This document shows, piece after piece, positions 25,150-58,532 of a stretch of DNA of 64,000 bases (the stretch's first letter is position 1; every line of letters starts with the position of its first letter). The translations under genes were made by a program, and so were the position numbers. The notes under the pieces were generated by a model. The model was not told the DNA's origin, did no database searches, and saw only the letters and a list, made by a program, of their open reading frames with translations. The stretch covers positions 138,758,001 to 138,822,000 of the forward strand of contig NW_024704742.1 in assembly GCF_018977255.1 (NCBI RefSeq), read 5' to 3'. Source of the DNA: Callorhinchus milii (Eukaryota).

Positions 25150-25329
25150 TACGAGTTGCAAATTGACTCTGAGATGTAAATCACGCCCCATATATTTGCT
25201 GAATCCTTGGTATATAAGGCTCCCGCATACACAAGAATAAAGAGACACAGCAGAGCCTTACACAGCAGAGCTTTACACAACAGAGCCTTACAGTGACGTC
25301 TCTTAATTGGACTGAGACTTTCCTCAGGG
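25150..25329 (+). promoter_or_regulatory. Putative promoter and 5' UTR of the secreted repeat-protein gene
   Basis: TATATAAG at 25211; TGACGTC (CRE-like) at ~25294; three copies of a 15 bp unit acacagcagagcctt; unique sequence directly upstream of a signal-peptide exon. Confidence 0.55.
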
Positions 25330-25390
25330 ATGGAATTTACTTTCTTCCTATTTCTGACACTTATTTTCCAAGTGCAACCTCCTATAGCAG
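25330..25390 (+). CDS. First coding exon encoding a signal peptide (MEFTFFLFLTLIFQVQPPIA-G)
   Basis: gggATGG Kozak-like context, hydrophobic core, small residues near a likely cleavage site, strong donor CAG|gtaagc (phase 1). Confidence 0.7.
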
Positions 25391-26044
25391 GTAAGCAGAT
25401 TATCCATAGATAATGGTGTGGTAACAAAGCAACAGCTTGAAGTTCTGCTCGAGTTGTATTTTAGAGTACTTTGAAAATGATTATCTGAGTAAAAATGTTC
25501 CAATAATTGCATTGGCAGGTTTTATGTGAAATTTCTGTATTGTTCCTTAATCATCCATGACAACAGAAGGAAACAAGAATTTGTCAGGTCAAGGTACATC
25601 CAAAAGAAGACCAAAGTACATCCAGTTCGCCTGCCACCATCCTGGTAGTCGCTTGACATGTCATGTCCCATGCTATATATTATATCCCAAGATTTTATTT
25701 TCTAACAGAAATCTATTTAATTTGTTCTTGAAACAAACAACACTTTCTGCTTCCACCATCTGTCTCCCTAGGGAGCCTGATCCATACATTTACTACTCAC
25801 TCCCTGAAGTCGTGCCTCTGCAGATTTGTTCTGAATTTACCCCCTTCAATTGCAGGCTGTGTCCGGTGGTTCTGCTGTTCAGTACAAGATAAAGCAGCTT
25901 ATCGTGGTCTACATTGTCCAATCTCTTTAAAATCTTTCTAGTCCCTTTAGAAGCTTAGATGTGAAAGGTGCTATACAATGTAATTTGTTGTTGTTGCCAG
26001 AGGACTCCACAATACGCTGCTGGACTCCACGGTAAAGCTATCTC

Positions 26045-26975
26045 AAATCACATCTTCATTTCCCTTAACCCCTCCATTCCCCTTCCGACCACCCAACCCA
26101 CCTCTATCTCTGACTGTACCTGGAGGTGAGAACGTTGTGTGCTGCTGAAAGCAGCTGGCTCAAATCTGTGGCCAGTGCTTCCTCTGTCTTCCCATCCTCC
26201 TTGATCAATGGCACCTTCGACACTGTCGACCATTCTATCCTTCTCCTCCACTTCTCCTCTCAGCTCAATCTTGCCCTTGCCTGGATCAAATCTTACCTTT
26301 CCCACTGTCTCCATTTTGTGTCCAAAACGTCTTCTCCTCCAGCCACCTCACCGTCTCATGCAAGTGCTCTGAGATGCTACCGTGTGTGGAGGGTGCTATA
26401 TAAGTAAAAGTTGTTGTAGTGTTCCTCAGGGCTCTGTCTTTGGTCCTCTTCACTTGAATATCTATATGCTCCCACTTGGTGACAAGCTTCCACATATATG
26501 CAGATGACACCCAACTCTATCTCTCTGCCTCCACCCTCCTCTCCAGGCCCAGTTGAATGTCAACGAAACCGAGGCCTTCCTGCTTGGCTTCCATCAATAA
26601 CTCCACACCTCCATGACCCATTCTTTGGAAGTCCCTGCTTGTTGGCCTCCCCAACTCTTTCCTCCACAAACTGCAATTCATTCAGAACTCTGCAGCCCAT
26701 GTCCTCTCCTGCACCAGGCTCCGTAATCTTATCACCCTTGCCCGACTCCACTGCCTTCCATTCCACCATCAGTGGCCACGCTTTCAGCCATTTCGTCTCA
26801 AAACATGGGAACTCTCCTCCTTTATCCCTCTACCTTGCCCCGTCTTTCCCCATTTTCAGATCGAGCCTGAACTTCTTATGGTCGACTCCCACCGGCTCGG
26901 CGTCAAGCATCACCTCTGTCAAGCTCTCCGGGATGCTACACTGCGTGAGGGGCATTAAATAAATGCAAGTTGCTG
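26045..26975 (+). mobile_element. Highly decayed L2 fragments
   Basis: FDTVDHSILL, YADDTQLY, LQFIQNSAAH motifs. Confidence 0.8.
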
Positions 26976-27000
26976 TATTTTATTTATTATTCTTTTAAAG

Positions 27001-27052
27001 GGCTATGGAAGATTGGCAATCCTCACAGTCATGAAAGAAAAACTGAAATACA
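27001..27052 (+). CDS. Candidate internal exon (GLWKIGNPHSHERKTEIQ)
   Basis: tcttttaaag| acceptor; phase 1 to 2 bridges exon 1 and the 27557 exon; the donor gtaata overlaps a SINE tail, so it is weak. Confidence 0.25.
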
Positions 27053-27403
27053 GTAATAATAATACTAATAATTCTTGCATTTGATATAGCACCTTTTATT
27101 ACATCTTTGAGACTTCAAAGCGCTTCACAGAATATATTGTAAAGTGTAGTGACTGTATATTTTGCAGTTAGCTAATTTCGCACAGCAGTATCCCACAAAC
27201 AATCATGGATTGAGAGACCAAATTATTATTATTTTTTAAGAGATTATTAGCCTGGGAAAGCGATCCGCCAATCGACTAACAACCGGCTTCCAACTTACTG
27301 CTAGGGAAACAGAGCCGTGTGGAGTAAGGAAACTTTCCTAAGGAATCAAACCCAGGTCTTCTCGCTTGCGAGGCGAGTGCTCTAACCACAATGCTGCAGT
27401 ACT
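27053..27403 (-). mobile_element. Long-form SINE
   Basis: Reverse complement of head, internal segment and tail. Confidence 0.85.
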
Positions 27404-27556
27404 CTTAAAGAGAAGACACAAACAGCACGCAAACCATGTTGTCCAAGTACCATGAATCTGACATCATTAGAGAGTGGGCTGCGGCTATCAGAGACATTGG
27501 GTGTAGGTGGTAGCACTTTGTTTGCATACAATAACATTTTCCAAATTTTATTTCAG

Positions 27557-27590
27557 GACTAAACTGCATGAGACTAAGCGACAAATAGAG
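27557..27590 (+). CDS. Candidate micro-exon (TKLHETKRQIE) with GC donor
   Basis: Good acceptor attttatttcag|; GAG|gcaaat; open in phase 2 to 0, matching the 36504 exon. Confidence 0.35.
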
Positions 27591-27808
27591 GCAAATTTGT
27601 CTCTCGATTTATTGATATTTTATTGATGTATTAATAAAGTGGATAATTATTTGGGGAGAATGAGTTTGCAGGGCTATGGGGAGAAAGTAGGGGAGTGGGA
27701 TTGAATTGGAAAGCTCCTTTCAGAGAGTCAGCACAGACATGATGGGCCGAATGGCCTCTTTCTATGCTGTAACGTTCTATGATTCTATGATTCAATGAAT
27801 GTGAATCG

Positions 27809-28133
27809 TGGAGTCCTGTAGCTCAGTGGTTAGAGCACTCGCTTTGCAAGCGAGAGACCTGAGTTCAATTCCAGGCAGAAGGCGAAACCTTGGGCAAGTT
27901 TCCTTACTCCACACAGAGCCTAATAATAATCCTCCAAAACCAAAAACAATAAGAAATTGGTCATTTTCAGTCTACGACTGTTTGTGGGACATTGCTGTGT
28001 GCAATTGGTTGCCGCGTTCGCCCACAAATATACAGTCAATTCACTTTACAGTGTGTTCTGTGAAGCGCTTTGGGACGTCCTCCCGACGTGAACAGCGCTA
28101 TATCAAATGCAAGGATTATTATTATTATTATTA
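27809..28133 (+). mobile_element. Full-length short-form SINE
   Basis: Near-identical to other young copies. Confidence 0.93.
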
Positions 28134-28499
28134 ATGTGTATTATCTCTGGAACTCCATCCCACGGTCCCTTGACCTCACTTCCTCCCTTGCCTCCTTCAA
28201 GGCGGGTCTCAAGACCCTTCGCCCGTGCCTTTGGTCTCCCTCCCACCTCTCTGCCTTCCCTCCCCACTACCCCACCCCTCCCCCATGCTCGGGTTCCGAC
28301 ACCTGACTGTTCAGCACTTTGGGACGTCCTCCCGACGTGAAAGGCGCTCTATAAATGTCATTTTGTTGTTGAATCAAGTGTCAGCCTGGTTCATTTGGTA
28401 GCATTCTTGCCTCTGATTCCAGCAGACAAAGTATAGGCTAAGTATAGTTATTATTTCATTTATTTTATTATTCTCAACTCTTCCTTGCCCCTGATCCTT

Positions 28500-28575
28500 T
28501 GCCACCCAGTTGGTCCATTCTTCTCTCTGGCATTGATCCAAACAATGCCAGAGAGAATGGACCAACTGGGTGGCA
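28500..28575. repeat. Near-perfect inverted repeat (33 bp stem, 3 nt bulge, 7 nt loop)
   Basis: tgccacccagttggtccattc[ttc]tctctggcattg-atccaaa-caatgccagagagaatggaccaactgggtggca. Confidence 0.95.
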
Positions 28576-28934
28576 TGAGTGGCATCCCCTCTCCTCCCCC
28601 GCCGTGCCTGCTGAATGAAGGGATGGAGGTTGTCAGGTGTTAAGAGGTCACAGAGGTAGGGAGGAGCATGACCTTGGAGAGCTTGAAAAGTGATCTTCTG
28701 TGTGATGGGAAGCCTGTGGAGCCGGCGAGAGTAGGGGTGATAGGGTCACAGAGCCATGTGCGGGAGAGGACACTAGCTGCAGAGTTCTGGATGATCTGCA
28801 GCTTTTAGAGGGAAGAGTTGGGAAGGTCGACAAGCAGGGAATTGGCAGAATTGAGCCTAGACGTGAATAATGCATGAATGAGGGTCTTGGTGACCCAAGG
28901 GGTCTTGTTGTTGTTGCTCCATGTCCCCCGCTCA

Positions 28935-29722
28935 GCCCTTCGTGCCTGCTCCGCCATTCAATAAGATCATGGCTGATCTTCTCACCTAACTCTGATTACC
29001 TGCCTTATCCCCATATCCCCTAATCCCTCTATTTTTTAAGAATCTATCAGTCTCAGCCTTGAAAATGTTAAAGGACTGACATCTACAGTCTTCACTACCC
29101 TCTGAGTGAAGAAATGTCTCCTCAACTCTGTTCTAAAAGGCTGACCCTTAATTTTCAGACTGTGACCTCTGGTTATAGATTCTCCTCCCGGGGAAACAGT
29201 CCCTTTGTGTCTACTTTATCAGCCCTTTAAGAATCTTATAAGTTTCAATAAGATCTCCCCTAATTCTTCTGTACTCGAGAGAATACAGCCCCAGTTTATT
29301 CAGCCTCTCCTCACAGGTCATCCCAGGAACTAACCGAGTGAATCTACGCTGCACCCCCTCGAGGGCAAGTATGTCCTTTTTTAAATAAGGACCAAAACTG
29401 CACACAATACTCTCGGTGCGGTCTCACCAAAGCCCTATACAGTTGCAGCAAGACTTCCCTACTCTTATATTCTGAACCTTTTGCAATGAACGCTAACTGC
29501 AGTTCGCCTTCTTAGTTGCTGCTGCACTGCAAACTAACTTTTTGGGACTGGTGTACACGGACACCCAAATCCCTTTGAATACTAACTCTATCTAACTTCT
29601 CCCCTTCCAAAAAATAATCTGTTCTTTTATTCTTGCTACCGAGGTGAATAATTTCACACTTGCTAACATTGAATTCCATCTGCCACCTACTTGCCCACTC
29701 CCCGAGCCTATCTATATCCTGT
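28935..29722 (-). mobile_element. Young CR1 3' portion
   Basis: [32 protein letters not shown]; near-identical to 37610-38640 and to 61490-62175 plus 63030-63160. Confidence 0.93.
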
Positions 29723-32270
29723 TGAGGCGAGTGAGGGTGGGAGTGATGTGGTCCCGAAGCCTGGTGCGGGACAGTACACGAGCTGCAGAGTTCTGAATGA
29801 CCTGCAGCTTGCGGAGAGAGGTGCCGGGAAGGCCGGCGAGGAGAGAGTTCCCATAGTCCAACCTTGAGGTGATAAAGGCGTGGACCAGAGTTTCAGCCGT
29901 GTGAGGGGTGAGGTAGTGCCGTAGTCTGGCGATATTCCGGAGGTGATGGAAGGCGGTGCCAGTTGTGGCGCGGATATGAGGGAGAAAGGACAGCTCAGGA
30001 TCAAGCAGAACACCCAGGTTCCTGACTGGCTTTGAGAGGTGGAGAGTGCAGCATTGGATGGTGATGCTGTCAGCGCCTGAAGTGCGGAGGCGCTGACGTG
30101 AGCCAATCGGGAGGGCCTCAGTTTTACGCACATTGAGCTGAAGAAAGTTGTCTCTCGTCAAGGACTCGATGTCGGACAGACAGCTGTCAGGACATCGGGG
30201 GTCATGGAGTTGAGGGTAGAGGAGGAAAGGTAGAGTTGGGTGTCATCCGCATACATGTGGAAGTGAACCCCATGTCTGCGGATGATGTCACCACAGGGGG
30301 AGCATATAGAGGGTGAAGAGGAGGGGACCAAGGACAGAGCCCTGAGGGACACCGCACGAGACAGTGCGGTGGGTGGAGGAAAAGTCGTTCGTGGAAACAA
30401 AGTGAAGACGGTGGGAGAGGTATGACCTAAACCACTCAAGGACAGGGCCTTGAAGGTTGAGGTGGGAGGACAAGCGGTGGAGGAGGATAGCGTGGTCGAC
30501 CGTATTGAATGCTGCCGGTAGGTCCAGGAGGATGAGGAGGCAGAGGGAGCCCTGGTCACAGATGGTCAGGATGTCATTGGTGACCTTGACCAGGGCAGTT
30601 TCTGTGCTATGTACAGCACAGAAATCCGACTGAAGGGGTTCGAATAATGAATGGGTGGAGAGGAAAGAGCGCAGCTGGGAGGCCACAACTCGTTCAAGGA
30701 CCTTGGACAGGAAGGGGAGGTTGGAGATGGGCCGGTAGCTTGATAGCTGCGACGCATCAAGGGAGGGGTTTTTCAAGGTGGGAGTGATGGTGGCAGTTTT
30801 CAAGGGAATGAGAACAGAGCCAGAGGAGAGGGACAGGTTGACGACGTCTGTGATATGTGGGGCAAGAAGGTGGAGCTGGGAGATGAGGAGTGGAGTGGAG
30901 ATGGGGTCAAGGGAGCAGGTGGTGGGTTTCAGGGATAGGATGAGTTTGGTGACAGAGGGTGGGGAAACGGGTACAAAAGTGTGTAGGGGAGGATGGGTTG
31001 GAGTCGGAGTGTGGGAGAGAAGGGGTGGGTGGTGGGTGGAGGTTGGAGGGGAAGTGACCGCGGAGCGGATTCCGTTGATTTTGGATTGAAGGAAATCCAG
31101 CATCTCCTCACAGTGAAGATTGGAGGAGATGACCTGCGCGGAGTGATGGGGGGGATGGAAGAGTCGGGATTTGGTAGAAAACAGTAGCCTGGGGTTGTTC
31201 TTCGCCTCCAGGATTATCCTGGAGTAGAAGGACGACTTGGCCGAGACTGGAGTGGAGCGTTAGGTTTTGAGGAGGTCCAGCCAGATTTGTCGGTGGACCG
31301 TTAGGCCAGATTTGAGGCAGTGCATTCAGCGGCCCGCACCTGGCTCTTCAGTGAGCGGAGGTGGGTGGTGAACCAGGGGGAGGAGCGAGAGTAGGAGACA
31401 GTACGGGAGGTGATGGGGGCAAGAGTGTCGAGTGATTCATGCATTGCAGCAATCGCCAGGTCGAGTGGGGTGACCATGGATGTGAAGGGTGGAATTAATA
31501 TGGAAGGAGCGGTTGTGAGAGGAGAGGAAGGAGAAGTCAGCGGCGGTGGAGTAAGAAGGTTGAAGTGGAGGTTAAAGCCGCCTAAGTTGAGGAGGCTTTC
31601 AGAACTGAGGCAGAGGAAGGTAGGAGGGTGGAGGTGTCAGAGAGGAAGATGGAGGATGGTTTGGGGAGATGATAGACAAGGAGAATATTAAGGGAAACAT
31701 TGAAGATATGATAGAGAGTGAGAAGGAAGGAAATGATGTGGAGGAGTAAGGGCAAAAAATGAGTGAGGACCTGGAGGTATATGATGGAAGCTGTATCTGG
31801 TTGGTGTAGCCTCAGTGAGGGGGAAGGTGTCACCTGGAGTAATCCAGGTTTCAGTGAGGGCCAGGGTAGCAATGCTTTTATTGACAATGAGGTCATGGAT
31901 GGTGAGGGCTTTACTGAAGAGAGAGCGGACATTTTGTAGGGCAATGTGGAGGTGACAATCGGCAGAGGCATGTGTGAGATGAGAGGGGGGAGAGGGAGAA
32001 TTGACAAGGACGGTAGGAATATGTAAAAGAAAGGAGAGGTTCGCTCCCAGGGGCTGGGACCAATGGATATGGGAGATTGGGCAGTCAGTGTGGCTACTAC
32101 TGTATAACCAACAGAGAGTGCCACGGTGAGCCCAACAACGATTCCCAGAGGGAGGCTGTGGGATGGTCAAGTGGGGAAAGGAGGCAAGGAGGATGGTAAG
32201 CAAAGAAGAAGCGAGTGGGAGTAATGGAGGCTAGGCAGCCAAACACACACCCAAGACTAAGAAGGAAAAA
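29723..32270 (-). mobile_element. L2 LINE ORF2 (endonuclease and RT), near full-length, frameshifted
   Basis: [53 protein letters not shown]. Confidence 0.93.
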
Positions 32271-32319
32271 AAATGGAAAATTACTTAGCAATAATCCTCA
32301 AATAAAATCAATCATTAAT

Positions 32320-32892
32320 TTGGCTTTATAAATAGAGGCATCGCTAGTTAGGCCTCAGCTGGAGTATTGTGTCGAATTCTGGGCACCACACTTTTTAAGA
32401 AGGACGTCAGGGGCTTGGAGGAGATTTACAAGAATGGTACCAGGGATAAGAGACAACAATTATGTGTGGAGGCCAAAGAGGCTGGGTTATTCTCCTTAGA
32501 GCAGAGAAGGTTGAGGGGAGATTTGATAGAATTGTTCAAAATGATGAGTGGTTTTGATCAGGAGAAACTATTTCCTCTGATGGCTGGGTTGGTAACCAGG
32601 GGACACAGATTCAAGATAATTGACAAAAGAACCAGACAAGGAGAATTTTTTTTAACCCAGAGAGTTGTTATGTTCTGGACTACACTGTCTAAAAGGCTGG
32701 TGGAAGCTGTTTGTTAGGTCAGGGGATCAAAAAGGTTTCAGAAGGGAATTAGATAGGTACTTTAAAAGGAAAAATGTGCAGGGCCATGGGGTAAGAGCGG
32801 GGGAGTGGGACTAGTTGACAGCTCTTTCAAGGAGTCAGCACAGGTACGATGGACCGAATGACCTCATTCTATGCTTCTATGATTCTATTATT
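32320..32892 (+). mobile_element. CR1 3' end fragment
   Basis: GLFSLEQRRLRGDLIE, TRGHRFKI, ttctatgattcta tail. Confidence 0.88.
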
Positions 32893-34206
32893 CTACTTCA
32901 AGGATGTTTATGGGACATTTGTGTGTGCAAACTGATTGCCTACGAAATATACAATCATTTCACTTAACAGTGAATCCTGTGAAGCATTTTACTACATCCG
33001 CCTGATGTAAAAGGTGTAATATCCTATGTAAGGATTAATATAATAATGGGGTTGGCTATGTTTCTATTGCTGGGTGAAAGTAACAAAACTAAAATGGTCA
33101 TGGAACAGAATCCGAGCCTGAAATGATAGGTCATTCAAGTCAAAGAGATCTTCCTTGTTGATTCAGCCACACGTTCCATTTCACTGATTGACTACCAATT
33201 CTCTTCTGTCTCTGGGGCCTGCGGAGTGGGGAGAGGAAGTCATTTTTTTAGTACTGAAATCAGGAGGCAGTTTTTCACCCAAAGTGTTGTGGGAATCTGA
33301 ATCTGGAACTCTCTCCCCCAAAAGGCTGTGGATTATGGCTGGATCCATTCACATTGTCTGGACTGAGGTGGAGAGATGTTTGTTAGGTCAGGGGACCCAG
33401 GGATATGGGGCAAAGGTGGATAATTGGAGTTGAGGTACAGATCAGCCATGGTCTTATAGAAAGCAAGGGTATGGGGAAAGAGCGGGGGAGCAGGACTGTT
33501 TGGGTAGCTCTTCTAAAGAGCTGGCACAGGCACAATGGACCAAATAGAGTACTTCTGTGACGTAATATTCTATGATTCTATGAATGGTGAAACATGCTTG
33601 AAGGGCTGAACGGCCTACTCCTGTTTCTATGTTGTATGGAAACTAAACACACAAAGATGGGAATGTCAGACCAAAAGGCATTAACGTCTTAACCTACCTC
33701 AGTTGGTAGTACACTTGGTTAATAATAATAATTCTTGCATTTGATATAGCGCTTTTTACGTCTTCTCGACGTCTCAAAGCGCTTCACAGAATAGACTGTA
33801 AAGTGAATTGACCGTATATTTGTGGGCGATATGTATATATTGACCATAGGTTTGTGGGTTCAGTAATCGTATCCTTACTCTGCCAATTCTCTGCTTGTAT
33901 TAATGTGGGCAGCCCAGAAAGTTTTCTTTCTTGATTGACATTGAGGCCTGAGGCTAAGTAGAGGCACCACTATGGGTGAATGTTGCTCCCTGTGGGTTTA
34001 ATAAAACAGCAATGGTTGTTCCCACTAAATAACAGCTTCTAACGTAGCATAAGGTTAGTATAATGTCCCAAATCATTTACAGAGCTAGAGTGGGAGCTCG
34101 AGCTAGGTGAGAGATAGTGGGAAAGTGGCCAAAACCAAGTCAAGATTGAAAAGTAAGTGGGAAGCACATTTTAACCCTTATGTACCCCCAAAATAACTCT
34201 ATGTTA

Positions 34207-36290
34207 TATAATCATAATAATCCTTGCATTTGATATAGGGCTTTTCATATTTTCTAGATGTCTCAAAGCACTTCACAGAATATACTGTAAAGTGAATTGA
34301 TTGTATATATTGTGGGTGAAACGTGGTAGCCAATTGCGCAAAGCAGTGTCCCACGAACAGCCGTGGAATTGAGTGACCAACATTTTTTTGAAGGATTACC
34401 CCCAGAAAAGCGAACCTCCAATCGACTAATAGCAACAACAGCTTATATTTATATAGTGCACTTCACATGGGTAGGATCCCGGAGTCTTGACAGTGGCGGA
34501 GTCTGACCCCGAGCCAGGGGGAGAGGGAGGGGGAGGTGACCGTCAGCACGATCAAAAAGGAAAGTCTTTAGGCGGGAGTTGAAGGTGGGGAGGGATGGGG
34601 CAAGGCGGAGGGATTGAGGGAGAGAGTTCCAGAGCTTCGGGGAGTAGTGGCTGAAGGCGCGGCCACTGATGGTGGAGCGGAGGGGACGAGGGACAAACAG
34701 GAGGCTGTATCCAGCTGAGCAAAGGCCGCGGGTGGGGCAGTGGGGGTGAGCAGGTCGGGGAGGTAGGGAGGGGCGAGGACATGAAGGAATTTAAAAATGA
34801 ATGATAGGATCTTAAAGTCAACCTGTTCAGTAATTGGGAGCCAGTGGAGCCTGGCAAGGACTGGGGTGATGCGGAGACAGAGTTTTGTGCGGGTGAGAAT
34901 CTGGGCAGTGGAGTTCTGAATTTGTTGTATTTTGTGTGTGGTGGAGCTGGGGAGACCAACGAGGAGGATATTGGAATAGTCCAGCTGGGAAGTTAGGAAG
35001 GCGTGGATGACGGTTTTGACTGCTTTTTGTTGTGAGGTACAATCAGAAGTGGGCAATGTGGTGCGGGTAGAGGAGGGTGTTCCTGGCCAGGGAATGGATG
35101 TGTGGTAGAAAGGAAAGCTACAGATTGAACTTAACGCCTTGATTGCGCACGGGTTCGGTGAGTCTGAGGGAGAGCCCAGGGAGGTTGAGAAGTTTAGATC
35201 CCCAAGAGGGAAGTTGTTAACGGGAGCCAAGGGTATGGCTTCCATCTTGCCGACATTCAGCTGCAGGAAATTTGTGCTCATCCAGGCCTGATGTCCGTCA
35301 AACAAACGGACAGGACATCAGTGGACTGACTGAGAGTCGCAGCTACAGTAGATTTGTGTTGTCAGTATACATGTGGAAGTTTACTCCATGTCTCCGGATG
35401 ACATCACCGAGAGGGAACATATAGATGAGGAAAAGAAGGGGACTAAGGAAAGAGCCTTGGGGTAGCCCACAGGTGACCGGGTGGGGGCCGGAGGAGTAAC
35501 CGTTTGCCAAGGTGTTTTAAGAGGGAGTGGGACAGAGTCTGAGGAGAGGGATTGGTTGATTGTGTCAGCCATCAGTGGGCAGATGAGGGAGATTTGGGTG
35601 ACCAGAAGCTGGATGGGGAAGTGCTTAAGATCGCAGGTGGTGGGCTTCATCTTGGTAATGGTGGGGGAAAAGGAAGCAAGAGAGCTGGACGCAAATGAGT
35701 GTAGGGTGGGGGCCGTGGAGGAGAGGCTGGTGAAGAAGGCATGGGGAAGGAACCTTGAGAGAAAGAGCGGTGGAAGGTATGAAGAGGCTAGAGCTACAGT
35801 TGGAGGTGAACCGTGAGGCCGGTTTTGTGCCATCTGCGCTCGAGAAACTGGCTTTGGGATTTGAGGGAGTGGAGTAACTGTTGTGCCGGGGGAGCGGGTA
35901 GGTTTGCTGATGGTCCTGGATTTCAGGGGGACAAAGGAATTGAAGGTGGAGGAGAGGCGATTGTTCAGCACCTTGACGGCTGCATCAGGATTGCTGTGGG
36001 TGGAAGGCCAGAGGGAGAGAAGGTCCGAGGATGAGAGGGCATTTCTGAGGGACTCAGGTGGAAGCTTTTTCCATGGGTGGAAAAAGATGATGGAAGGCTT
36101 GGAGATGTTGGAGGAGAGGGAGATGAGGAAGTAGTCAGAGATGGACTTGTTGTGATGGACAGCCCAGGGTTCCTATTTACTGCTAGGTAAACGGAAGCAT
36201 GTGGAGTAAGGAAACTTGCCTAAGCTTTCATCCTATCCAGTAATCTCGCTTATGAGACGAGCGCTCTAACCACTAAGCTACAGGACTCCA
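34207..36290 (-). mobile_element. Long-form SINE split by an older L2 (~34432-36160), all on minus
   Basis: SINE head 36290-36165, body 34430-34207; insert has WMSTNFLQLNVGKMEAI and LARLHWLPITEQVDFKIL. Confidence 0.85.
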
Positions 36291-36503
36291 GCAGATGTGA
36301 GCTGAGATTCCTGTAACCAAGTGTCCAGAGCTGAGATTTGGAAGATGAATGCCCGATCCAGCTAGATAAGTGGCAGTATTGATGATGCGCATGGGACAGT
36401 GTACACAGAACATCAAGGTAAGGGTGCTTAAAAATGTCAGTCCCCAATAACTTGCAGTAGAATCAATTAAATTTTATGGTGTATGCTGTTTGATTTTTCA
36501 TAG

Positions 36504-36540
36504 GATGAATCCAACTTACTCGGTGAGAAATCTCAAGAAG
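36504..36540 (+). CDS. 37 nt micro-exon (DESNLLGEKSQE-G)
   Basis: Strong sites tttgatttttcatag| and AAG|gtaaga; phase 0 to 1; peptide resembles DEANLGEKMSDE at the start of the large exon. Confidence 0.6.
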
Positions 36541-37221
36541 GTAAGATATTAGAATAGAGTTAAAAAATGAAATGTGTGGAGTTAATTACTTAGAAGTAAA
36601 GGTTGCAAGAAGTATGCATAAGAGTAAGGGAAATGGAACTTAAAAAACCTCCATTATCCATTAAACTAACAGCCTGGACCCAAAGACTAGGAACATAGGA
36701 ACAGGAGGAGGCCATTCAGCCTCCTGTTTTTACATTTTAGGTAACGTCATAATAAAAAAAAATTAAAAAACAATGTCCTGGCAGCCCCTGTCACTGCCCC
36801 CAGCCATGAGCACACAGCCTGCGGCTGATGCCGTCCCACTGATCGCTTACTCCCGGTCTTTTGGTGCAAGTTTTGGCTGCCGCCCTGACCCGAGCCTCCC
36901 CCTCCCCCTCCACTCCAAATGTCTCTCCTCCCACCCACCTCTACCCGCTACTCCCCCTCCTTCCTTCTCTCCCACCGCCCTCCCCACCTTCTCTCTCTCC
37001 TCGACCCCATCACCACTTCCCTCTGCTCCAGCCTGGGCATCCTCTGCTGGACCCATCGTGGCTCCCGGCAATGGCTGTCCCAGAGCAGCCACCCCACGTG
37101 TCCCATCATTCACTCCCTCCGCTCAAACCGCCTCCTTAAGGCAAACCCAACTCCCCCCTCTCTCATACGTACCCTCCCCAACTCTCCACTCCCCCCATTC
37201 TCCACAAACTCCACAAAAAAA

Positions 37222-38678
37222 AAATTTTTTTGAGGATGTATCCAGGAGGTTGGATAAGGGGGAACCAGTAGATGTGGTATATTTGGATTTTAGGAAGGCA
37301 TTTGACAAGGTGCCACCCAAAAGGCTGTTACTCAAGATCAAGGCCCACGGGATTAATGGGAAAATATTAACATGGATAGAAGAGTGGCTATCGGGTAGAA
37401 AGCAGAGAGCAGTGATAAACGGATCATTCTCGAATTGCAGGATGTGACTAGTGGAGTGCCACAAGGATCAGTGCCTCGGCCTCAGCTATTTACCATTTAC
37501 ATCAATGATCTGGACGAGGATATTGAATGTAATGTGTCTAAATTCGCGGATGATACTAAACTACGGAGCAGAGTGAGCTCTCAGGATGATGCAAAAAGAT
37601 TGCAACGGAATATAGATAGGCTCGGGGAGTGGGCAAGTAGGTGGCAGATGGAATTCAATGTTAGCAAGTGTGAAATTATTCACCTCGGTAGCAAGAATAA
37701 AAGAACAGATTATTTTCTGGAAGGGGAGAAGTTAGATAATGTTAGTATTCAAAGGGATTTGGGTGTCCTTGTACACCAGTCCCAAAAAGTTAGTTTGCAG
37801 TGCAGCAGCAACTAAGAAGGCGAACGGCAGTTAGTGTTCATTTCGAAAGGTTTAGAGTACAAGAGTAGGGAAGTTTAATAATAATAATCCCTTCAAAACC
37901 AAAACAATAATAAATTGGTCATTTTCAATCTACGAGTGTTTGTGGGACATTGCTGTGCGCAATTGGCTGCCGCGTTCGCCCACAAATATACAGTCAATTC
38001 ACTTTACAGTGTGTTCTGTGAAGCGCTTTGGGACGTCCTCTCGACCTGAAAAGCGCTATATCAAATGCAAGGATTATTATTATTATTATAACTGTATAGG
38101 GCTTTGGTGAGACCGCACCGAGAGTATTGTGTGCAGTTTTGATTTCCTTATTTAAAAAAGGACATACTTGCCCTCGAGGGGGTGCAGTGTAGATTCACTC
38201 GGTTAGTTCCTGGGATGAGAGGACTGACCTATGAGGAGAGGCTGAATAAACTGGGGCTGTATTCTCTGGAGTACAGAAGAATTAGGGGAGATCTTATTGA
38301 AACTTATAAGATTCTTAAAGGGCTGATAAAGTAGACACAGAGGGTCTGTTTCCCCGGGAGGAGAATCTATAACCAGAGGTCACAGTCTGAAAATTAAGGG
38401 TCAGCCTTTTAGAACAGAGTTGAGGAAACATTTCTTCACTCAGAGGGTAGTGAACTTATGGAATTCACTCCCCCAGAAGGCTGTAGATGTCAGTCCTTGA
38501 ACATTTTCAAGGCTGAGACTGATAGATTCTTGAAAAATAGAGGGATTAGGGGATATGGGGATAGGGCAGGTAATCAGAGTTAGGTGAGAAGATCAGCCAT
38601 GATCTTATTGAATGGCGGAGCAGGCACGAAGGGCCGAATGGCCTACTCCTGCTCCTAATTCTTATGTTCTTATGTTCT
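37222..38678 (+). mobile_element. Young CR1 RT and 3' UTR with SINE 3' half inserted (~37877-38090)
   Basis: [31 protein letters not shown]; tail (cttatgtt)n. Confidence 0.93.
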
Positions 38679-38689
38679 TATCTCTCCTG

Positions 38690-39415: not shown

Positions 39416-39419
39416 TGAG

Positions 39420-43810: not shown

Positions 43811-43835
43811 CGGATCCGTTTCTGTGAAGCTCAGA

Positions 43836-44147: not shown

Positions 44148-44184
44148 GGTTGCCGTCCAGCGAGGCGAAACGAGCTTCCAAATT

Positions 44185-45345
44185 AACCCACTCCCCCGCT
44201 CTCTCCCCATAGCCCCGATCAACCCCACTCCCCCGCTCTCTCCCCATAGCCCTGATCAACCCCACTCCCCGCTCTCTCCCCATAGCCCCGATCATCCCCA
44301 CCCCCCACCCCCCATAGCCCGATCAACCCCACTCCCCCGCTCTCTCCCCATAGCCCTGATCAACCCCACTCCCCCGCTCTCTCCCCATAGCCCTGATCAA
44401 CCCCACTCCCCGCTCTCTCCCCATAGCCCTGATCAACCCCACTCCCCCGCTCTCTCCCCATAGCCCTGATCAACCCCACTCCCCCACTCTCTCCCCATAG
44501 CCCTGATCAACCCCACTCCCCGCTCTCTCCCCATAGCCCTGATCAACCCCACTCCCCCACTCTCTCCTCATAGCCCTGATCAACCCCACTCCCCGCTCTC
44601 TCCCCATAGCCCTGATCAACCCCACTCCCCGCTCTCTCCCCATAGCCCTGATCAACCCCACTCCCCCACTCTCTCCCCATAGCCCTGATCAACCCCACTC
44701 CCCGCTCTCTCCCCATAGCCCTGATCAACCCCACTCCCCGCTCTCTCCCCATAGCCCTGATCAACCCCACTCCCCCGCTCCCTCCCCATAGCCCTGATCA
44801 ACCCCACTCCCCGCTCTCTCCCCATAGCCCTGATCAACCCCACTCCCCGCTCTCTCCCCATAGCCCTGATCAACCCCACTCCCCCACTCTCTCCCCATAG
44901 CCCTGATCAACCCCACTCCCCGCTCTCTCCCCATAGCCCTGATCATCCCCACTCCCCCGCTCTCTCCCCATCGCCCTGATCAACCCCATTCCCCCGCTCT
45001 CTCCCCATAGCCCCGATCAACCCCACTCCCCGCTCTCTCCCCATAGCCCTGATCAACCCCGCTCTCTCCCCATAGCCCTGATCAACCCCACTCCCCGCTC
45101 TCTCCCCATAGCCCTGATCAACCCCACTCCCCGCTCTCTCCCCATAGCCCTGATCAACCCCACTCCCCCGCTCTCTCCCCATAACCCTGATCAAACCCAC
45201 TCCCCCGCTCTCTCCCCATAGCCCTGATCAACCCCACTCCCCCGCTCTCTCCCCATAGCCCTGATCAACGATCAACCCCAATCCCCCGCTCTCTCTCCCT
45301 ATAGCCCTGATTAACCCCACTGCCCCGCGCTCTCCCTATAGCCCT
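44185..45345. repeat. Minisatellite, 36-37 bp unit, ~31 copies, derived from a CR1 3' UTR
   Basis: Unit ccccactccccgctctctccccatagccctgatcaa; flanked by minus-strand CR1 3' sequence (to ~45590). Confidence 0.95.
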
Positions 45346-45924
45346 GCAAACTTGTCCTCCCCAAATAATGATCTACTTCTCTCTTAAGTTGTTATGGAAT
45401 TGGCTTCCCTCAGCCTTTCAGGCAATGCATTCCAGATCCCAACAACTCACTGTGTGGAAACATTTCTCCTCACCTCCCCTCTATTTCTCTTGACAACTAA
45501 GAGAGATTACCGACCCACCCACCAGTGGGAATAGTCTCTCTTTGTTCATCCTATCGAATCCCCTCATAATTTTGAAAACTTCTATTAAGTCAAAGTCAAG
45601 ATCCTCTCACTCTCATGTTCAAATCCCTTCACTCCCTGGCACTTCCCTCCCTCTCCGACCTCCTCACTCCCCAACCCTTCACCCGGTCAGCGCCTTCGGT
45701 CAACTGGCACCAGCTCCTGGTCATTCTCGCACCCTCCGCCTCACTATCGGAGGTCGCGCTTTCAGCTTCACTACACCCCAAACTCTGGAACACTCTCCCT
45801 CAGTCCCTCTGCCTTGCCCCCTCTCTACCCTTTTTCAATTCCCGCCTGAAAACCTTCCTCCTCAACCGTGGCTCCACTACTTTTAAACGCTCTGAGATGC
45901 TGCCCTGCGTGCAGGGTACTAGAT

Positions 45925-50965: not shown

Positions 50966-51489
50966 CAAGGAGATGAGCATGAAGGAACTGGTAAGGTAGT
51001 GTTCCAGATCCATGAGGGTCTGTGGTTGAGGTTCTGGTACTCAGAAATTACAAGATCACCAGATTAGATCAGATGAAGAAACCCCTTTGGATGAGACCAG
51101 ATGTTTTTAAAAATGATTTCATGTCACCACTCTCCTTATAACGTTTCGCCCACAAAATATAGTCAATTCACTTTATAGTATATCCTGTGAAGTGCTTTTG
51201 ACATCTTGAAGATGTGACAAGGCACTATATCAAATGCAAGGATTATTAATGTGGGATTACATGGGATCACATGTGAATTGGTAACTGAATCTGGAGCACT
51301 TCTCAGGGATGTCACCACCTCTGTGATATGCATTCCACTATTCATCACTCATATTCATGTTATCATTCTTTCTCTTTCCCTGCTGCTTGTCGTATCTACA
51401 TGTAATAATAATCTTTGCATTTGATATAGAGCTTTTCATGTCTTCTGTAAAGTGAATTGACCGTATATTTGTGGGCGAAACAGCGTCTT

Positions 51490-52450: not shown

Positions 52451-52452
52451 AT

Positions 52453-52719
52453 GATCAGGTCACCTTCAGCCTTCTTTATTCCAGCAGAAAAAGTCCAATT
52501 TCCTCTGGTCTCCACTCAAAGGCCAAGCCACTCAACCCCATTATCATACTCGTAAATCTCTGTTCCCCTCTATCTCCCTGATGTCTTTCCTAAAAACTGT
52601 GGTGACCAATACTGGACACAATATTCTGACTGTGGTCTGATTAACGATTTATACATATTTAGCGTTACCTCTTTGCGTTTATATTCTATACCCTTATTTA
52701 TAAAACCCAAGGTTCCATG
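52453..52719 (-). mobile_element. Old CR1 fragment abutting the large exon
   Basis: Minus strand reads GTLGFINKGIEYKR..; similar to 19320-19420. Confidence 0.75.
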
Positions 52720-55700
52720 AGCTTGGATGTCAGCTCACACCATGATGTGAACGTTCCTGATGAAGCAAACCTTGGAGAGAAGATGTCTGATGAGAAGATG
52801 TCTGATGTGAAGTTTATTGGTGATCAAGTTTCTGGTGTGAAGATTCCTGGTGTGAAGACTCTTGGTGGTCAAGTTCCTGGTGTGAAGATTCCTGGTGCAC
52901 AAATTCCTGGTATTGATATGCCTGGCATGGTGACATCTGGTGTGAAGATTCCTGGTGTGAAGACTCTTGGTGGTCAAGTTCCTGGTGTGAAGATTCCTGG
53001 TGCACAAATTCCTGGTATTGATATGCCTGGCATGGTGACATCTGGTGTGAAGATTCCTGGTGTGAAGACTCTTGGTGGTCAAGTTCCTGGTGTGAAGATT
53101 CCTGGTGCACAAATTCCTGGTATTGATATGCCTCGCATGGTGACATCTGGTGTGAAGATTCCTGGTGTGAAGACTCTTGGTGGTCAAGTTCCTGGTGTGA
53201 AGATTCCTGGTGCACAAATTCCTGGTATTGATATGCCTCGCATGGTGACATCTGGTGTGAAGATTCCTGGTGTGAAGACTCTTGGTGGTCAAGTTCCTGG
53301 TGTGAAGATTCCTGGTGTACAAATTCCTGGTATTGATATGCCTCACATGGTGACATCTGGTGTGAAGATTCCTGGTGTGAAGACTCTTGGTGGTCAAATT
53401 TCTGGTGTACAAATTCCTGGCATGGTGACATCTGGTGTGAAGATTCCTGGTGTGAAGATTCTTGGTGGTCAAGTTCCTGGTGTACAAATTCCTGGCATGG
53501 TGAAATCTGGTGTGAAGATTCTTGGTGGTCAAATTCCTGGTGTGAAGATTCCTGGTGCACAAATTCCTGGTATTGATATGCCTCGCATGGTGACATCTGG
53601 TGTGAAGATTCCTGGTGTGAACATTCTTCGTGGTCAAATTTCTGGTGTACAAATTCCTGGCATGGTGACATCTGGTGTGAAGATTCCTGGTGTGAAGATT
53701 CTTGGTGGTCAAGTTCCTGGTGTACAAATTCCTGGCATGGTGAAATCTGGTGTGAAGATTCTTGGTGGTCAAATTCCTGGTGTGAAGATTCCTGGTGCAC
53801 AAATTCCTGGTATTGATATGCCTCGCATGGTGACATCTGGTGTGAAGATTCCTGGTGTGAACATTTTTCGTGGTCAAATTTCTGGTGTACAAATTCCTGG
53901 CATGGTGACATCTGGTGTGAAGATTCCTGGTGTGAACATTCTTCGTGGTCAAATTTCTGGTGTACAAATTCCTGGCATGGTGAGTTCTGGTGTGAAGATT
54001 CCTGGTGTGAAGATTCCTGGTGTGAAGATTCTTGGTGGTCAAGTTCCTGGTGTACAAATTCCTGGCCTGGTGAAATCTGGTGTGAAGATTCTTGGTGGTC
54101 AAATTCCTGGTGTGAAGAGTCCTGGTGCACAAATTCCTGGTATTGATATGCCTCGCATGGTGACATCTGGTGTGAAGATTCCTGGTGTGAAGACTCTTGG
54201 TGGTCAAATTTCTGGTGTACAAATTCCTGGCATGGTGACATCTGGTGTGAAGATTCCTGGTGTGAACATTCTTCGTGGTCAAATTTCTGGTGTACAAATT
54301 CCTGGCATGGTGAGTTCTGGTGTGAAGATTCCTGGTGTGAAGATTCCTGGTATGAAGATTCTTGGTGGTCAAGTTCCTGGTGTACAAATTCCTGGCCTGG
54401 TGAAATCTGGTGTGAAGATTCTTGGTGGTCAAATTCCTGGTGTGAAGATTCCTGGTGCACAAATTCCTGGTATTGATATGCCTCGCATTGTGACATCTGG
54501 TGTGAAGATTCCTGGTGTGAACATTCTTCGTGGTCAAATTCCTGGTGTACAAATTCCTGGCATGGTGACATCTGGTGTGAAGATTCCTGGTGTGAACATT
54601 CTTCGTGGTCAAATTTCTGGTGTACAAATTCCTGGCATGGTGAAATCTGGTGTGAAGATTCCTGGTGTGAAGATTCTTGGTGGTCAAATTCCTGGTGTAC
54701 AAATTCCTGGCATGGTGAAATTTGGTGTGAAGATTCCTAGTGTGAACATTCTTCGTGGTCAAATTTCTGGTGTACAAATTCCTGGCATGGTGAGTTCTGG
54801 TGTGAAGATTCCTGGTGTGAAGATTCCTGGTGTGAAGATTCTTGGTGGTCAAGTTCCTGGTGTACAAATTCCTGGCCTGGTGAAATCTGGTGTGAAGATT
54901 CTTGGTGGTCAAATTCCTGGTGTGAAGATTCCTGGTGCACAAATTCCTGGTATTGTTATGCCTGGCATGGTGACATCTGGTGTGAAGATTCCTGGTGTGA
55001 ACATTCTTCGTGGTCAAATTCCTGGTGTACAAATTCCTGGCATGGTGACATCTGGTGTGAAGATTCCTGGTGTGAACATTCTTCGTGGTCAAATTTCTGG
55101 TGTACAAATTCCTGGCATGGTGAAATCTGGTGTGAAGATTCCTGGTGTGAAGATTCTTGGTGGTCAAATTCCTGGTGTACAAATTCCTGGCATGGTGAAA
55201 TTTGGTGTGAAGATTCCTAGTGTGAACATTCTTCGTGGTCAAATTTCTGGTGTACAAATTCCTGGCATGGTGAGTTCTGGTGTGAAGATTCCTGGTGTGA
55301 AGATTCCTGGTGTGAAGATTCTTGGTGGTCAAGTTCCTGGTGTACAAATTCCTGGCCTGGTGAAATCTGGTGTGAAGATTCTTGGTGGTCAAATTCCTGG
55401 TGTGAAGATTCCTGGTGCACAAATTCCTGGTATTGTTATGCCTGGCATGGTGACATCTGGTGTGAAGATTCCTGGTGTGAACATTCTTCGTGGTCAAATT
55501 TCTGGTGTACAAATTTCTGGCATGGTGAAATCTGGTGTGAAGATTCCTGGTCTGATGTTTCCTAGTATGACATTATTTAATGTGAACACGCCTTTTGCAA
55601 CGCTTCCTGCTATGTTGTTATTCAATCGGCAGACTCCCAGCATGGCCAATCTCAGGTTGTGGTTACCTGATATGATGAGACCTGCTGGTGAGAGGTTCCC

Positions 55701-56400
55701 AGGTTGGAGTTTCCCAGGTGGGAATTTTCCTGATGGGAGACAACCCAATATGGGGTTTCCTGGTGTGATCCCAGGTTGGAAGCTTCCTGGTGGGTGGCTC
55801 TTCTTTTTGAGAACGGCTGGTACAGAGTTTCCTAATGTGTTCCCTAGTGGGACATTCCCCTTTTTGAGAATGCCTGGAATGGATTTTCCTGGTTTCACAT
55901 TCCCTGGTAGGCACAGACTTGGTTTTGGCTGGAACATACCTGGTGTGCAGTTTCCTGGTTTTGGCTTCCCTGGCAGGAACATACCTGGTGTGCAGTTTCC
56001 TGGTTTTGGCTTCCCTGGCAGGAACATACCTGGTGTGCAGTTTCCTGGTTTTGGCTTCCCTGGCAGGAACATACCTGGTGTGCAGTTTCCTGGTTTTGGC
56101 TTCCCTGGCAGGAACATACCTGGTGTGCAGTTTCCTGGTTTTGGCTTCCCTGGCAGGAACATACCTGGTGTGCAGTTTCCTGGTTTTGGCTTCCCTGGCA
56201 GGAACATACCTGGTGTGCAGTTTCCTGGTTTTGGCTTCCCTGGCAGGAACATACCTGGTGTGCAGTTTCCTGGTTTTGGCTTCCCTGGCAGGAACATACC
56301 TGGTGTGCATTTTCCTGGTGGAAGACTCTCCTTTTGGTGGACAAACAGCATGGAGGTTCCTGATGGGAGATCAGATGTTTGGAGGATGCCTGGTATGTAG
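52712..56400 (+). CDS. Large exon of a Gly/Pro/Val/Ile-rich pentapeptide-repeat protein (1227 aa ORF from 52717), probably secreted and structural
   Basis: Only frame open across both the repeat arrays and the degenerate linker at 55550-55930, where the xPG periodicity persists at protein level; candidate acceptor cccaag|GT TCC ATG in phase 1. Confidence 0.75.
52830..55550 (+). repeat. 15 bp coding tandem repeat (~180 units) with 105, 240 and 480 bp higher-order periods
   Basis: cctggtgtgaagatt consensus; lines at 53401/53641 and 54721/55201 are duplicated. Confidence 0.97.
55930..56318 (+). repeat. 45 bp coding repeat (RNIPGVQFPGFGFPG, ~8.5 copies)
   Basis: Internal copies identical at the nucleotide level. 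Confidence 0.97.
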
Positions 56401-56796
56401 ACTCCTGTTGCAAATTTACATGATGTGAAGATGCCTGTAGTGATGTCTGTTGTGTGGCTACCTTGTGTGAATATTCCAAGTAAAAGTGGGAGGTTACCTA
56501 GTGTGAAGATTCCTGACATAGACATTCCTGATGCGGAGTTTGGGGTGCAGCTGGAGTTTGGGGTGCAGCTGGAGTTTGGGGTGCAGCTGGAGTTTGGGGT
56601 GCAGCTGGAGTTTGGGGTGCAGCTGGAGTTTGGGGTGCAGTTGGAGTTTGGGGTGCAGTTGGAGTTTGGGGTGCAGTTGGAGTTTGGGGTGCAGCTGGGG
56701 TTTGGGGTGCAGCTGGGGTTTGGGGTGCAGCTGGGGTTTGGGGTGTATACAGACGTTTTGAAACATCGTCTGGTTAAGAATGACACTGTATCAAAT
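56401..56796 (+). other. In-frame open continuation after the TAG, ending at a splice donor; includes 18 bp repeat EFGVQL (~11.5 copies, ~56536-56745)
   Basis: TPVANLHDVKMP..SVKIPDIDIPD retains the pentamer motif; AAT|gtaaga donor in phase 0. Confidence 0.6.
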
Positions 56797-56829
56797 GTAA
56801 GAATTTGTTTGTGGATAGTGTTGTTTACT

Positions 56830-57030
56830 GGGGCGGAGGTGGGGTTAGCGGGAGGGGGTGGTTTAGTGGGGGGCGGGGTTAGTGGGAGGGATGTTAGTGG
56901 GAGGGGGTAGTTTAGTGGGAATGGGTGGTTTAGTGGGAGGGGTGTTAGTGGGGAGGGGTGTTAGTGGGGAGGGGTGGTTTAGTGGAGGGGGGGGTTAGTG
57001 GGAGGGTGGGTTGGGGATACAGGGGATGGG
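56830..57030 (+). repeat. G-rich degenerate repeat (gggaggggtggtttagtg)
   Basis: About 9 imperfect units with G-runs immediately downstream of the donor. Confidence 0.85.
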
Positions 57031-57514
57031 TTGAGGAGTGAGGTGTAAGCAAATTGGAGAGGTAGGAAGGTACCAGGCATGAATTGATTTGAACATGAGT
57101 GTGAGGATCTTGAAATGGATACGTTCAGTGCCTTGGGACGTCCTCCCGACGTGAAAGGCGCTATGCAAATGTAATCTTGTTGTTGTTGTTGTGTGACAGG
57201 GAGCCAGTGGAGCCTGGTTGTTGAAGACAGGTTTGACAGTGTGTCAAATCAAGTGGGAACTAGACCAATACAGGAAACTCTTGATACTGCAATCTATTTA
57301 ACTAGTCAGCACCAATTAGGTCACTATGCCCCGCTGTCAGTACCCCGATAACTTCCCATGCACAATGTTAATAAGGGACTCGTCACACCCCCTAACACCT
57401 AACTGGTCACATTCTAGAAATTCTTGTGAGTAATTACAATGTAAAATTGATCAGATAAGTCGTCCTATAGATGGCTTCTTGCATCAAAGAATCCTCTGGT
57501 CTATTGGAGAACCA

Positions 57515-57822
57515 TGCCTCTGGCTCCGGCCTGTTACATGTCCCCTGCCCCCACCATCAGTGTCGGGACTTCAGCCTCTCTGCCCCCACCCTTTGGAACT
57601 CCATCCCACAGCCTCTTTGCCTTGCCCCTCCCTTGCCTCCTTCAAAGCCCGGTTCAAGATCCTCTTCGACCGTGCGTTCGGTTACCCTCCTATCTCCACC
57701 CTCTCTACCCTCCACCCCTCCTGAACCCAACCACCAGCTCAGGTCCAAATCCTTGGCTGTCCACCATCTTGGGACATCCTCCTGATGTGAAAGGCGCTGT
57801 GTAAATGTAATGTGTTGTTGTT
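57515..57822 (+). mobile_element. L2 3' end fragment
   Basis: [16 protein letters not shown] and L2 tail. Confidence 0.85.
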
Positions 57823-58441
57823 ACCTTCCTCCCCATTCTGTGACAATAGACCAAAGGCCTCTGCAACAGAATAAGGCAGGGCTCTTCAATAAACCAGAGG
57901 CCTCTGCGTGCCTCTGAGCATATGCGCCCAACCTCTACTGATTAACCCCACCCGTCACAGCGCCCCCTTGTGACCTACAGCTAACTCACCACTCTGGATA
58001 ACTCATTGCTGAGCTCTTTTCCCTTGGAGTAACACTTTTTCAGAGTTTATTGTACCTTAACAACAACAACAACAAGATTGCATTTATAGAGCGCCTTTCA
58101 CATCGGGAGGACGTCCCAAGGCGCTGTGTAAGTTTCTACGGTTCTGTGTTATGGGGTTGTGGGCTGACTTACGTCTCTCCTGAATGTGTCAGCTTGCAGT
58201 CAGCAGTTGTAGATATTTGTGAAGATTAAATGATACACAGTCATCCCTGTCTTCAATCAGGGGACTGGGCCAAAGTGGCCTTTATGTAGGGGTGGCCTCT
58301 GAGTAAGGCTTTGTTGGTGTGTGAGTCTGGCTGTTGGGCTGTGCCAGGGTGATTGTTAACAAGGGGGTGGTTGCTGAATGGAGGTGGTTGCTTCAACAGA
58401 TTTGACTGTAATGTATTCAGCTTAGTTTTTTGTCTTCACAG

Positions 58442-58532
58442 GTACTGGACTGGAGAAGTGGAATGATGGAACATGTGAAAGTGTGATGGCATACCTAGAT
58501 CCAGATGGAAAATATTGTTCTCTGCAAATAAC
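58442..58532 (+). other. Candidate downstream exon; phase 0 reads VLDWRSGMMEHVKV*
   Basis: Strong acceptor ttttttgtcttcacag| and donor AAC|gtaagt in unique sequence. Confidence 0.5.

Follow-up and report, generated by a model that had tools for sequence, protein, structure and literature searches.

A probable orphan gene for a secreted pentapeptide-repeat protein between SELENOP and a truncated NIPBL in the Callorhinchus milii genome

The elastomeric proteins of vertebrates are nearly synonymous with elastin, whose cross-linking domains carry a Lys/Ala motif. Lamprin, a lamprey cartilage matrix protein, contains a Tyr-containing Gly pentapeptide, the egg-case proteins of sharks are hybrid collagens, and the clotting proteins of the seminal vesicle are comparable repeat proteins that serve as transglutaminase substrates. 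In tropoelastin, hydrophobic and cross-linking domains alternate, and repeats of the GVPGV type coacervate without cross-linking domains (PMC5703643, available text). The trappins, which are described as eutherian-specific, carry KGQDPV repeats that transglutaminases cross-link through K and Q (PMC2831891, available text), and SCPP genes have phase-0 first coding introns and a position beside sparc-L (PMC9122587, available text). The window analysed here is a 64,000-nucleotide (nt) stretch of Callorhinchus milii DNA (GCF_018977255.1, contig NW_024704742.1; G000:C1:138758001-138822000, the assembly measuring 991.5 Mb). Flanked by SELENOP and a truncated NIPBL, it holds what is, judged from the sequence, probably a real, orphan gene for a secreted repeat protein. 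Positions are counted from the first letter of the window, and those above 64000 carry this count on into the adjoining sequence.

The largest feature is a giant exon on the plus strand at 52712-56392, of 3681 nt or 1227 codons, which begins and ends in phase 1 and lies between an AG acceptor and the donor CTG|GTATGT at 56393. One plus-strand frame alone of the six is stop-free across it (117, 27 and 0 stops in the plus frames; 14, 5 and 34 in the minus frames), and there is no frameshift over these 3.7 kb, the non-repetitive parts included. The exon as a whole encodes 20% Gly, 12% Pro, 13% Val and 12% Ile, with no Cys and no Tyr. It opens, after a weak acceptor, with an acidic leader (52712-52827, plus strand) of 38 residues, 9 of them D/E, in which Asp often occupies the Gly position of the pentamer. 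Array A (52828-55557, plus strand) follows with 182 pentapeptides in unbroken register, the commonest being IPGVK (24), TSGVK (17), IPGMV (16), ILGGQ (14) and ISGVQ (11). Gly is third in 162 of the 182 units and Pro second in 105, and the fifth position is Gln in 64 and Lys in 63. The array contains 96 Pro-Gly pairs, is 21.4% Gly and 11.6% Pro (33% for the two together, P+G), has a grand average of hydropathy of +0.5, carries 91 K+R against 9 D+E, and lacks Cys and Tyr. The aromatic-rich linker of 127 residues (55552-55932, plus strand) has itself as its only strong match in the genome, and is a decayed form of the 15-nt repeat unit (58% identity to the unit, compared with 40% in 500 shuffles, maximum 46%). 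Array B (55933-56337, plus strand) repeats a 15-residue Phe/Gly/Pro unit of 45 nt 8.8 times with 99% matches; it is Phe-rich and reaches 45% P+G. The stretch at 56338-56400 (plus strand) contains an 18-residue tail and offers two possible exon ends, the phase-1 donor at 56393 (score 3.9 on our own approximate splice matrix, whose values here and below are meaningful as ranks only) and an in-frame TAG at 56398-56400.

A TATA box, TATATAAG, is found at 25211-25218 on the plus strand, about 120 nt upstream of an ATG at 25330 (context GGGATGG), and a 15-nt repeat present 3.2 times lies in the 5' untranslated region (UTR) at 25245-25292 on the same strand. The coding part of exon 1 (25330-25390, plus strand) is 61 nt long, that is, 20 codons and 1 nt. 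It encodes a predicted signal peptide, in which a hydrophobic core of 11 residues and, close to the end of the exon, small residues are recognisable by eye, and ends at a phase-1 donor (AG|GTAAGC, score 7.2). Joined to the giant exon it is in frame and gives an open frame of 1249 residues. The first-pass annotation had listed the TATA box, the signal-peptide-like exon, a 37-nt micro-exon and the 1227-codon repeat open reading frame (ORF), and all four lie where it placed them.

A second copy of the promoter and exon 1, the one other copy found, is located 610 kb upstream on the minus strand (G000:C1:138173161-138173097), inverted relative to the window copy and 87% identical to it over 351 nt. 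The TATA box, ATG, frame and donor are all kept in this copy, with a 3-nt insertion and with 3 of 5 coding substitutions synonymous; this conservation is suggestive, not significant. The homology ends within intron 1, about 0.6 kb from its start, and upstream there is patchy likeness over about 6 kb of window sequence. No copies of the micro-exon, the giant exon or the Cys exons described below were found in 1.06 Mb or genome-wide, and no repeat exon follows the paralogous exon 1. Two CC-chemokine genes with signal exons of their own start 24 kb past it on the same strand, and blastn found no likeness between those signal exons and exon 1. The chemokine genes (G000:C1:138148876-138147670 and 138140084-138136900, minus strand) have TATA boxes and phase-1 signal exons, with a Pfam IL8 match for one of them; the 5' UTR of one contains a repeated ACACAGCAG word resembling the 5' UTR of the gene studied here.

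We consider it very probable that this is a real protein-coding gene, because a single frame stays open through non-repetitive parts without a frameshift, the downstream exons are in phase, the splice pairs are of top rank, and the TATA box and signal exon are intact twice.

The sequence is best read as an orphan, lineage-restricted gene. Three word-seeded searches of 5.8 billion proteins, which covered lengths of up to 2146 residues, together with phmmer, Pfam and Protein Data Bank (PDB) searches returned, within the lengths searched, no protein encoded by the window and only low-complexity look-alikes. Residues 940-1226 gave one bacterial RHS match among 5677 candidates of near length and two FPG low-complexity matches among the best 8000 shorter candidates scored, all of which were rejected; the N-terminal 45 residues had no match among proteins of 44-140 residues. 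Nothing significant was found in Pfam for any of the four pieces submitted, with no match to Lamprin (PF06403) at E values up to 10 and none to WAP, and the best E value in the PDB sequence search was 0.12. The search for a match to an already characterised gene thus came back empty in protein, Pfam and PDB searches within the lengths covered. AlphaFold2 gave no confident model, with a mean predicted local distance difference test score of 34.6 for 140 residues of array A and 38.3 for the linker with array B. Weak matches elsewhere in the genome were set aside as well. One, on contig C23, is a GC-rich 15-bp minisatellite in the intron directly after a first exon that we take by eye to be IGFBP-like (G000:C23:7633294-7636497). 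Those at the end of contig C15 (L183:4374-7348) and on C471 (L184:1-1912) belong to a 15-bp satellite common to contig ends, probably subtelomeric, which has ORFs of 320-636 codons in several frames and, on C15, switches frames. A literature search over mostly open-access main texts found no description of such a gene. In the available part of the 2014 genome paper the polyadenylated (polyA) RNA panel does not include oviducal gland or skin (PMC3964593), which could explain the missing protein record; the available part of an oviducal-gland survey nowhere uses the word "protein" (PMC8471067).

The micro-exon (36504-36540, plus strand) is 37 nt long, runs from phase 0 to phase 1 in an acidic frame, and is bordered by TTTTCATAG on the acceptor side and AAG|GTAAGA on the donor side; it was single copy in the genome search. 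It looks like a real exon, because it is one of only 4 strong acceptor/donor pairs in about 91 kb of unique sequence (both strands, 264 kb in total), 2 of which are exons of neighbouring genes: one of NIPBL and one that we take to be of CCDC152. The remaining pair flanks an exon 3.8 kb past the window end. The first-pass annotation had used the micro-exon to link exon 1 with the giant exon. Its phase-1 end does fit the 52712 acceptor. Exon 1, by contrast, ends in phase 1, whereas the DESNLL frame has to be entered in phase 0, and joining the two creates a premature stop (GGA TGA) at codon 22. The interval 25392-36490 yielded no exon with usable splice sites that would convert phase 1 to phase 0, and three weak bridging candidates proved to lie inside a minus-strand long interspersed element (LINE). 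The micro-exon cannot directly follow exon 1, and therefore does not link the two islands in the way proposed; it would need a missing exon or another first exon, or it would be skipped. The resemblance between DESNLLGEKS in the micro-exon and DEANLGEKMS in the giant exon, which had been offered as further linkage, does outscore every other non-self match in a six-frame comparison of the window and is above chance (score 31, which 70 of 20000 shuffles attain); a score as high nevertheless occurs at three unrelated places in 1.06 Mb, so that the evidence is modest. A possible upstream exon end was seen at 36371-36417 on the plus strand, where an open frame containing two ATGs ends in phase 0 at a strong donor, 36418, which lies 86 nt before the micro-exon and is in phase with it; the candidate acceptors are poor (-9.5 and -7.7).

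There are two readings of the 3' end, in which the transcript would be spliced on from the 56393 donor or the protein would stop at the TAG. In the spliced reading, the phase-1 donor would lead to a 91-nt exon at 58442-58532 (plus strand, phase 1 to 2) and from there to a 32-nt exon beyond the window at 67796-67827 (G000:C1:138825796-138825827, L003:3796-3827; plus strand, phase 2 to 1, strong splice sites). Each has only one open frame and two Cys, and the chance of such an in-phase chain is about 1 in 9 by our estimate. Together the two exons give the spacing C-x13-C-x8-C-x3-C and end in phase 1, and exon scans found no further convincing exon downstream. A phmmer search with the frame of the 58442 exon against 1.84 billion representatives returned three repeat-driven, non-homologous matches (an unrelated repeat protein and two DUF285 proteins). 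Hidden Markov models (HMMs) built from domains of the same genome did not single out the Cys peptide, which is a fragment only: 1620 of 1884 reported shuffles scored as high with the Sushi model (30 mostly 4-Cys domains) and 760 of 1965 with the TNFR model (21 domains).

If the TAG ends the protein, an AATAAA at 57888-57893 on the plus strand is a candidate polyA signal, and no AATAAA nearer to the stop was found up to 57429. Past the TAG, the giant-exon frame and its unit continue for 45 more codons (56401-56535, plus strand; 68% identity to the unit, compared with 40 ± 3% in shuffled sequence). Since the frame goes on and the TAG occupies a unit position that is usually AAG (Lys), either the exon formerly extended further or the stop arose recently. 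An 18-nt repeat, present 11.7 times, comes right after this continuation (56535-56745), and the sequence is open in that frame to 56907.

From the exons, phases, repeat anatomy and composition, we propose, tentatively and with slightly less than even confidence, one lineage-restricted gene whose product, of about 1250 residues, is secreted, disordered, basic and rich in Gly and Pro, self-associates and is cross-linked by transglutaminase. The phase-1 signal exon would be spliced to the giant repeat exon and the protein would be secreted. By analogy with the hydrophobic domains of elastin, its hydrophobic x-Pro-Gly-x-x repeats may mediate self-association. By analogy with trappin-type repeats, a transglutaminase might then join Gln and Lys of the fifth repeat position into an insoluble matrix; Gln-Lys isopeptide bonds are suggested because repeats with both residues mark transglutaminase substrates and because the Lys/Ala domains of elastin are absent. 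The product would be a tough extracellular material in a tissue outside standard RNA panels, such as the egg-capsule gland, the reproductive ducts or the skin. The micro-exon would be either used alternatively or orphaned, and the protein would end at the TAG or continue into a small Cys-rich module whose remainder is perhaps lost from the assembly. The single gene for a large secreted Gly/Pro-rich protein proposed by the first-pass annotation thus stays the best reading, with exon 1 in frame with the giant exon, the promoter and exon 1 conserved in the copy and no known family matched, while the micro-exon linkage it included falls away.

A bolder extension, which we regard as speculative and rather unlikely, is that this gene represents a second origin of an elastin-like protein among jawed vertebrates, independent of the first and restricted to chimaeras or cartilaginous fishes. 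Its 1250 residues would form a block copolymer, with an acidic leader, then a Lys/Gln pentapeptide block and then an aromatic Pro-Gly block. It would undergo phase separation when secreted, and transglutaminase in place of lysyl oxidase would fix it as a biomaterial such as an egg capsule or a reproductive plug. If true, a Pro-Gly pentapeptide polymer would have arisen by another route, and the Gln and Lys at one position would make it a natural counterpart of engineered elastin-like polypeptides. The gene would also be a candidate component of chimaera egg capsules or gland secretions, for which no protein description was found in the literature, and it suggests that a reference vertebrate genome may still conceal large repeat genes missed by protein searches.

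Several observations weigh against the proposed gene and its material role. Exon 1 and the micro-exon are incompatible in phase, the acceptor at 52712 has a weak score (-2.4) and the donor at 56393 a moderate one (3.9), and support from RNA or reads was obtained for no junction. Four runs guessed to be RNA, compared with 25100-43000, were swamped by contigs of LINEs and short interspersed elements (SINEs), and the 15 joints listed of 479 included none at an exon end, which says nothing on the junctions. A share of 0.04-0.13 of the words of 55500-56500 was present in three runs guessed to be RNA, which is evidence neither way, and a share of 0.69-0.93 in four runs of unknown kind from one study; among the runs listed as sharing such words, none is recorded as RNA. 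Open frames come easily in this repeat. The minus strand is also open across array A, where synonymous change is not in excess and the Pro codon is always CCT. In a simulation of neutral decay without indels, 183 codons stayed stop-free in 6-20% of runs, and unrelated 15-bp satellites elsewhere in the genome yield ORFs of 320-636 codons. The frame that continues past the TAG may mark decay. Array A, at 33% P+G, is far under the 60% of GVPGV, so that its elasticity is not assured.

Much of this would suit a decaying gene or a non-coding minisatellite, in which a 15-bp repeat yields the long frame as a by-product and the small exons are either relics or untranscribed. The simulated survival of open frames, the long ORFs of other satellites, the TAG that interrupts a continuing frame, the phase clash of exon 1 with the micro-exon and the missing protein record all fit it. 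We nevertheless think it improbable: unlike the C15 satellite, which switches frames, the 3.7 kb contain no frameshift even where they are not repetitive, three junctions are in phase (exon 1 to the giant exon and two downstream), the splice pairs rank at the top, and the TATA box and signal exon are intact in two copies. The same upstream features could also be divided between two transcription units, the signal exon belonging to another transcript and the giant exon starting without a signal peptide from the micro-exon region, at the ATG exon ending at the 36418 donor. The phases match from this strong donor through the micro-exon to the giant exon, and two ATGs lie in the donor's frame; moreover, the paralogous exon 1 has no repeat exon and stands 24 kb upstream of same-strand chemokine genes. 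Against such a division, which we judge very improbable, no other convincing partner for the signal exon was found before 52712, and the chemokine genes have their own signal exons, which show no likeness to exon 1 by blastn.

Two further alternatives accept a real gene and differ in what the protein does. The secreted protein could set as a stiff beta-sheet or amyloid-like material, as in lamprin or chorion, and not as a cross-linked elastomer, the Gln/Lys pattern being incidental. Repeats low in P+G tend to be amyloid and intermediate ones tend to be reversible (PMC8786786, available text, citing Rauscher 2006); array A, with 33% P+G and alternating Ile, Val and Met, may be stiffer than elastin, and array B is rich in Phe. 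Pro in the second position of 105 of the 182 array A units would break long strands, however, array B at 45% P+G would be more disordered, and the protein has no match to Pfam Lamprin; we regard this alternative as unlikely. A little less likely again, the giant exon could be a lineage-specific insert in an older gene, in which a Sushi- or TNFR-like Cys-rich module at the C-terminus, most of it missing from the assembly, is the working part and the repeats are a spacer or anchor. The giant exon is symmetrical (phase 1/1), the C-x13-C-x8-C-x3-C exons end in phase 1, and about 770 NIPBL residues that were not found point to missing sequence; yet the Sushi and TNFR HMMs do not favour the Cys peptide over shuffles, no Pfam match was obtained, and phmmer gave only three repeat-driven non-homologues.

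The surrounding sequence bears on the 3' end. SELENOP is 10 kb before the window on the minus strand (SelP_N, E 4e-26), a GHR exon is 76 kb before it (Pfam GHBP, E 4e-73), and NIPBL lies beyond it on the minus strand (Cohesin_HEAT; PDB NIPBL chains, E 2e-17). CCDC152, LIFR/OSMR, RICTOR, FYB, DAB2, EGFLAM and SLC1A3 are presumably also nearby, as recognised by eye from translations and not by a tool label. The NIPBL exons found end with one that corresponds to residues 840-884 of a 1652-residue chain in the PDB, and no exons for the remaining 770 or so residues were seen in 1.06 Mb by eye (one 200-kb part on one strand only). Because the NIPBL end was not seen and no gap is marked there (G000:C1:138825827-138840459), an unmarked assembly loss, a deletion or a misjoin, is likely between 67827 and 82459. 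It may have taken the 3' end of the gene studied here too, and the locus thereby points to sequence that is probably missing from the assembly, with NIPBL truncated as well. Searches for the NIPBL end (PF12830), CPLANE1 (PF15392) and a contig overlapping the last exon gave nothing usable, and the family searches had no positive control, so absence is not shown. This likely loss, the in-phase exon beyond the window and the frame continuing past the stop had been missed by the first-pass annotation.

About half of the region is repeated (49% masked), with SINEs and LINEs dominating, and the long intron contains a 37-bp C-rich minisatellite of about 32 copies (44187-45346). A 220-bp unique stretch beyond the window is duplicated either side of a CR1-type LINE (L003:5254-5472 and L003:8399-8612). 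A LIFR/OSMR-like exon set occurs twice, nearly identical and 49 kb apart (G000:C1:138346228-138359400 and 138400561-138408557), and GHR exons are doubled as well, at 95 and 89 kb before the window; these doublings are a tandem duplication or an assembly duplication. Between DAB2 and GHR there is a single immunoglobulin V-type exon (G000:C1:138605482-138605196, minus strand).

Compared with the systems described at the outset, the predicted protein resembles tropoelastin and (GVPGV)n in its Pro-Gly-turn pentapeptides with aliphatic neighbours, its predicted secretion and the lack of a folded model. It differs in that the exon has no KAAK or KAAAK, only 1.3% Ala and no poly-Ala, in that all repeats are in a single giant exon, and in that the fifth position of array A carries Gln (64 times) or Lys (63 times) in place of the Gly of elastin repeats. 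With lamprin it shares a non-collagen, Gly-rich pentapeptide of matrix type in an early-diverging vertebrate lineage, whereas the giant exon is without Tyr, is rich in Pro and has no PF06403 match. Like the SCPP proteins, including elasmobranch scpp, it would be a secreted low-complexity protein with short acidic early exons (PMC9122587, available text); unlike them, its first coding intron is in phase 1, its neighbours are SELENOP, GHR and NIPBL and not sparc-L, and it is basic, not acidic, without a Tyr-rich region. A secreted structural role in a cartilaginous fish would be shared with the hybrid collagens of shark egg cases, but the longest Gly-X-Y run in the giant exon is 6 residues, and the first-pass statement that the protein is neither collagen nor canonical elastin is borne out. 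The cementoin repeats of trappin/elafin offer a predicted signal peptide, short repeats with Gln and Lys (here Gly-Gln, then Val-Lys or Val-Gln within five residues) and possibly a small Cys-rich module as points of likeness; the analogy is one of design only, the period being five residues and not six, the repeats about 900 residues long and no sequence match present. The WAP domain of trappins has eight Cys, whereas four were found here, with no WAP match and with a 3' end possibly lost from the assembly. By the features compared, the protein is not a collagen, a tropoelastin, an SCPP or a lamprin; its way of working would be closest to that of an elastin-like polypeptide provided with cross-link sites in the style of trappins.

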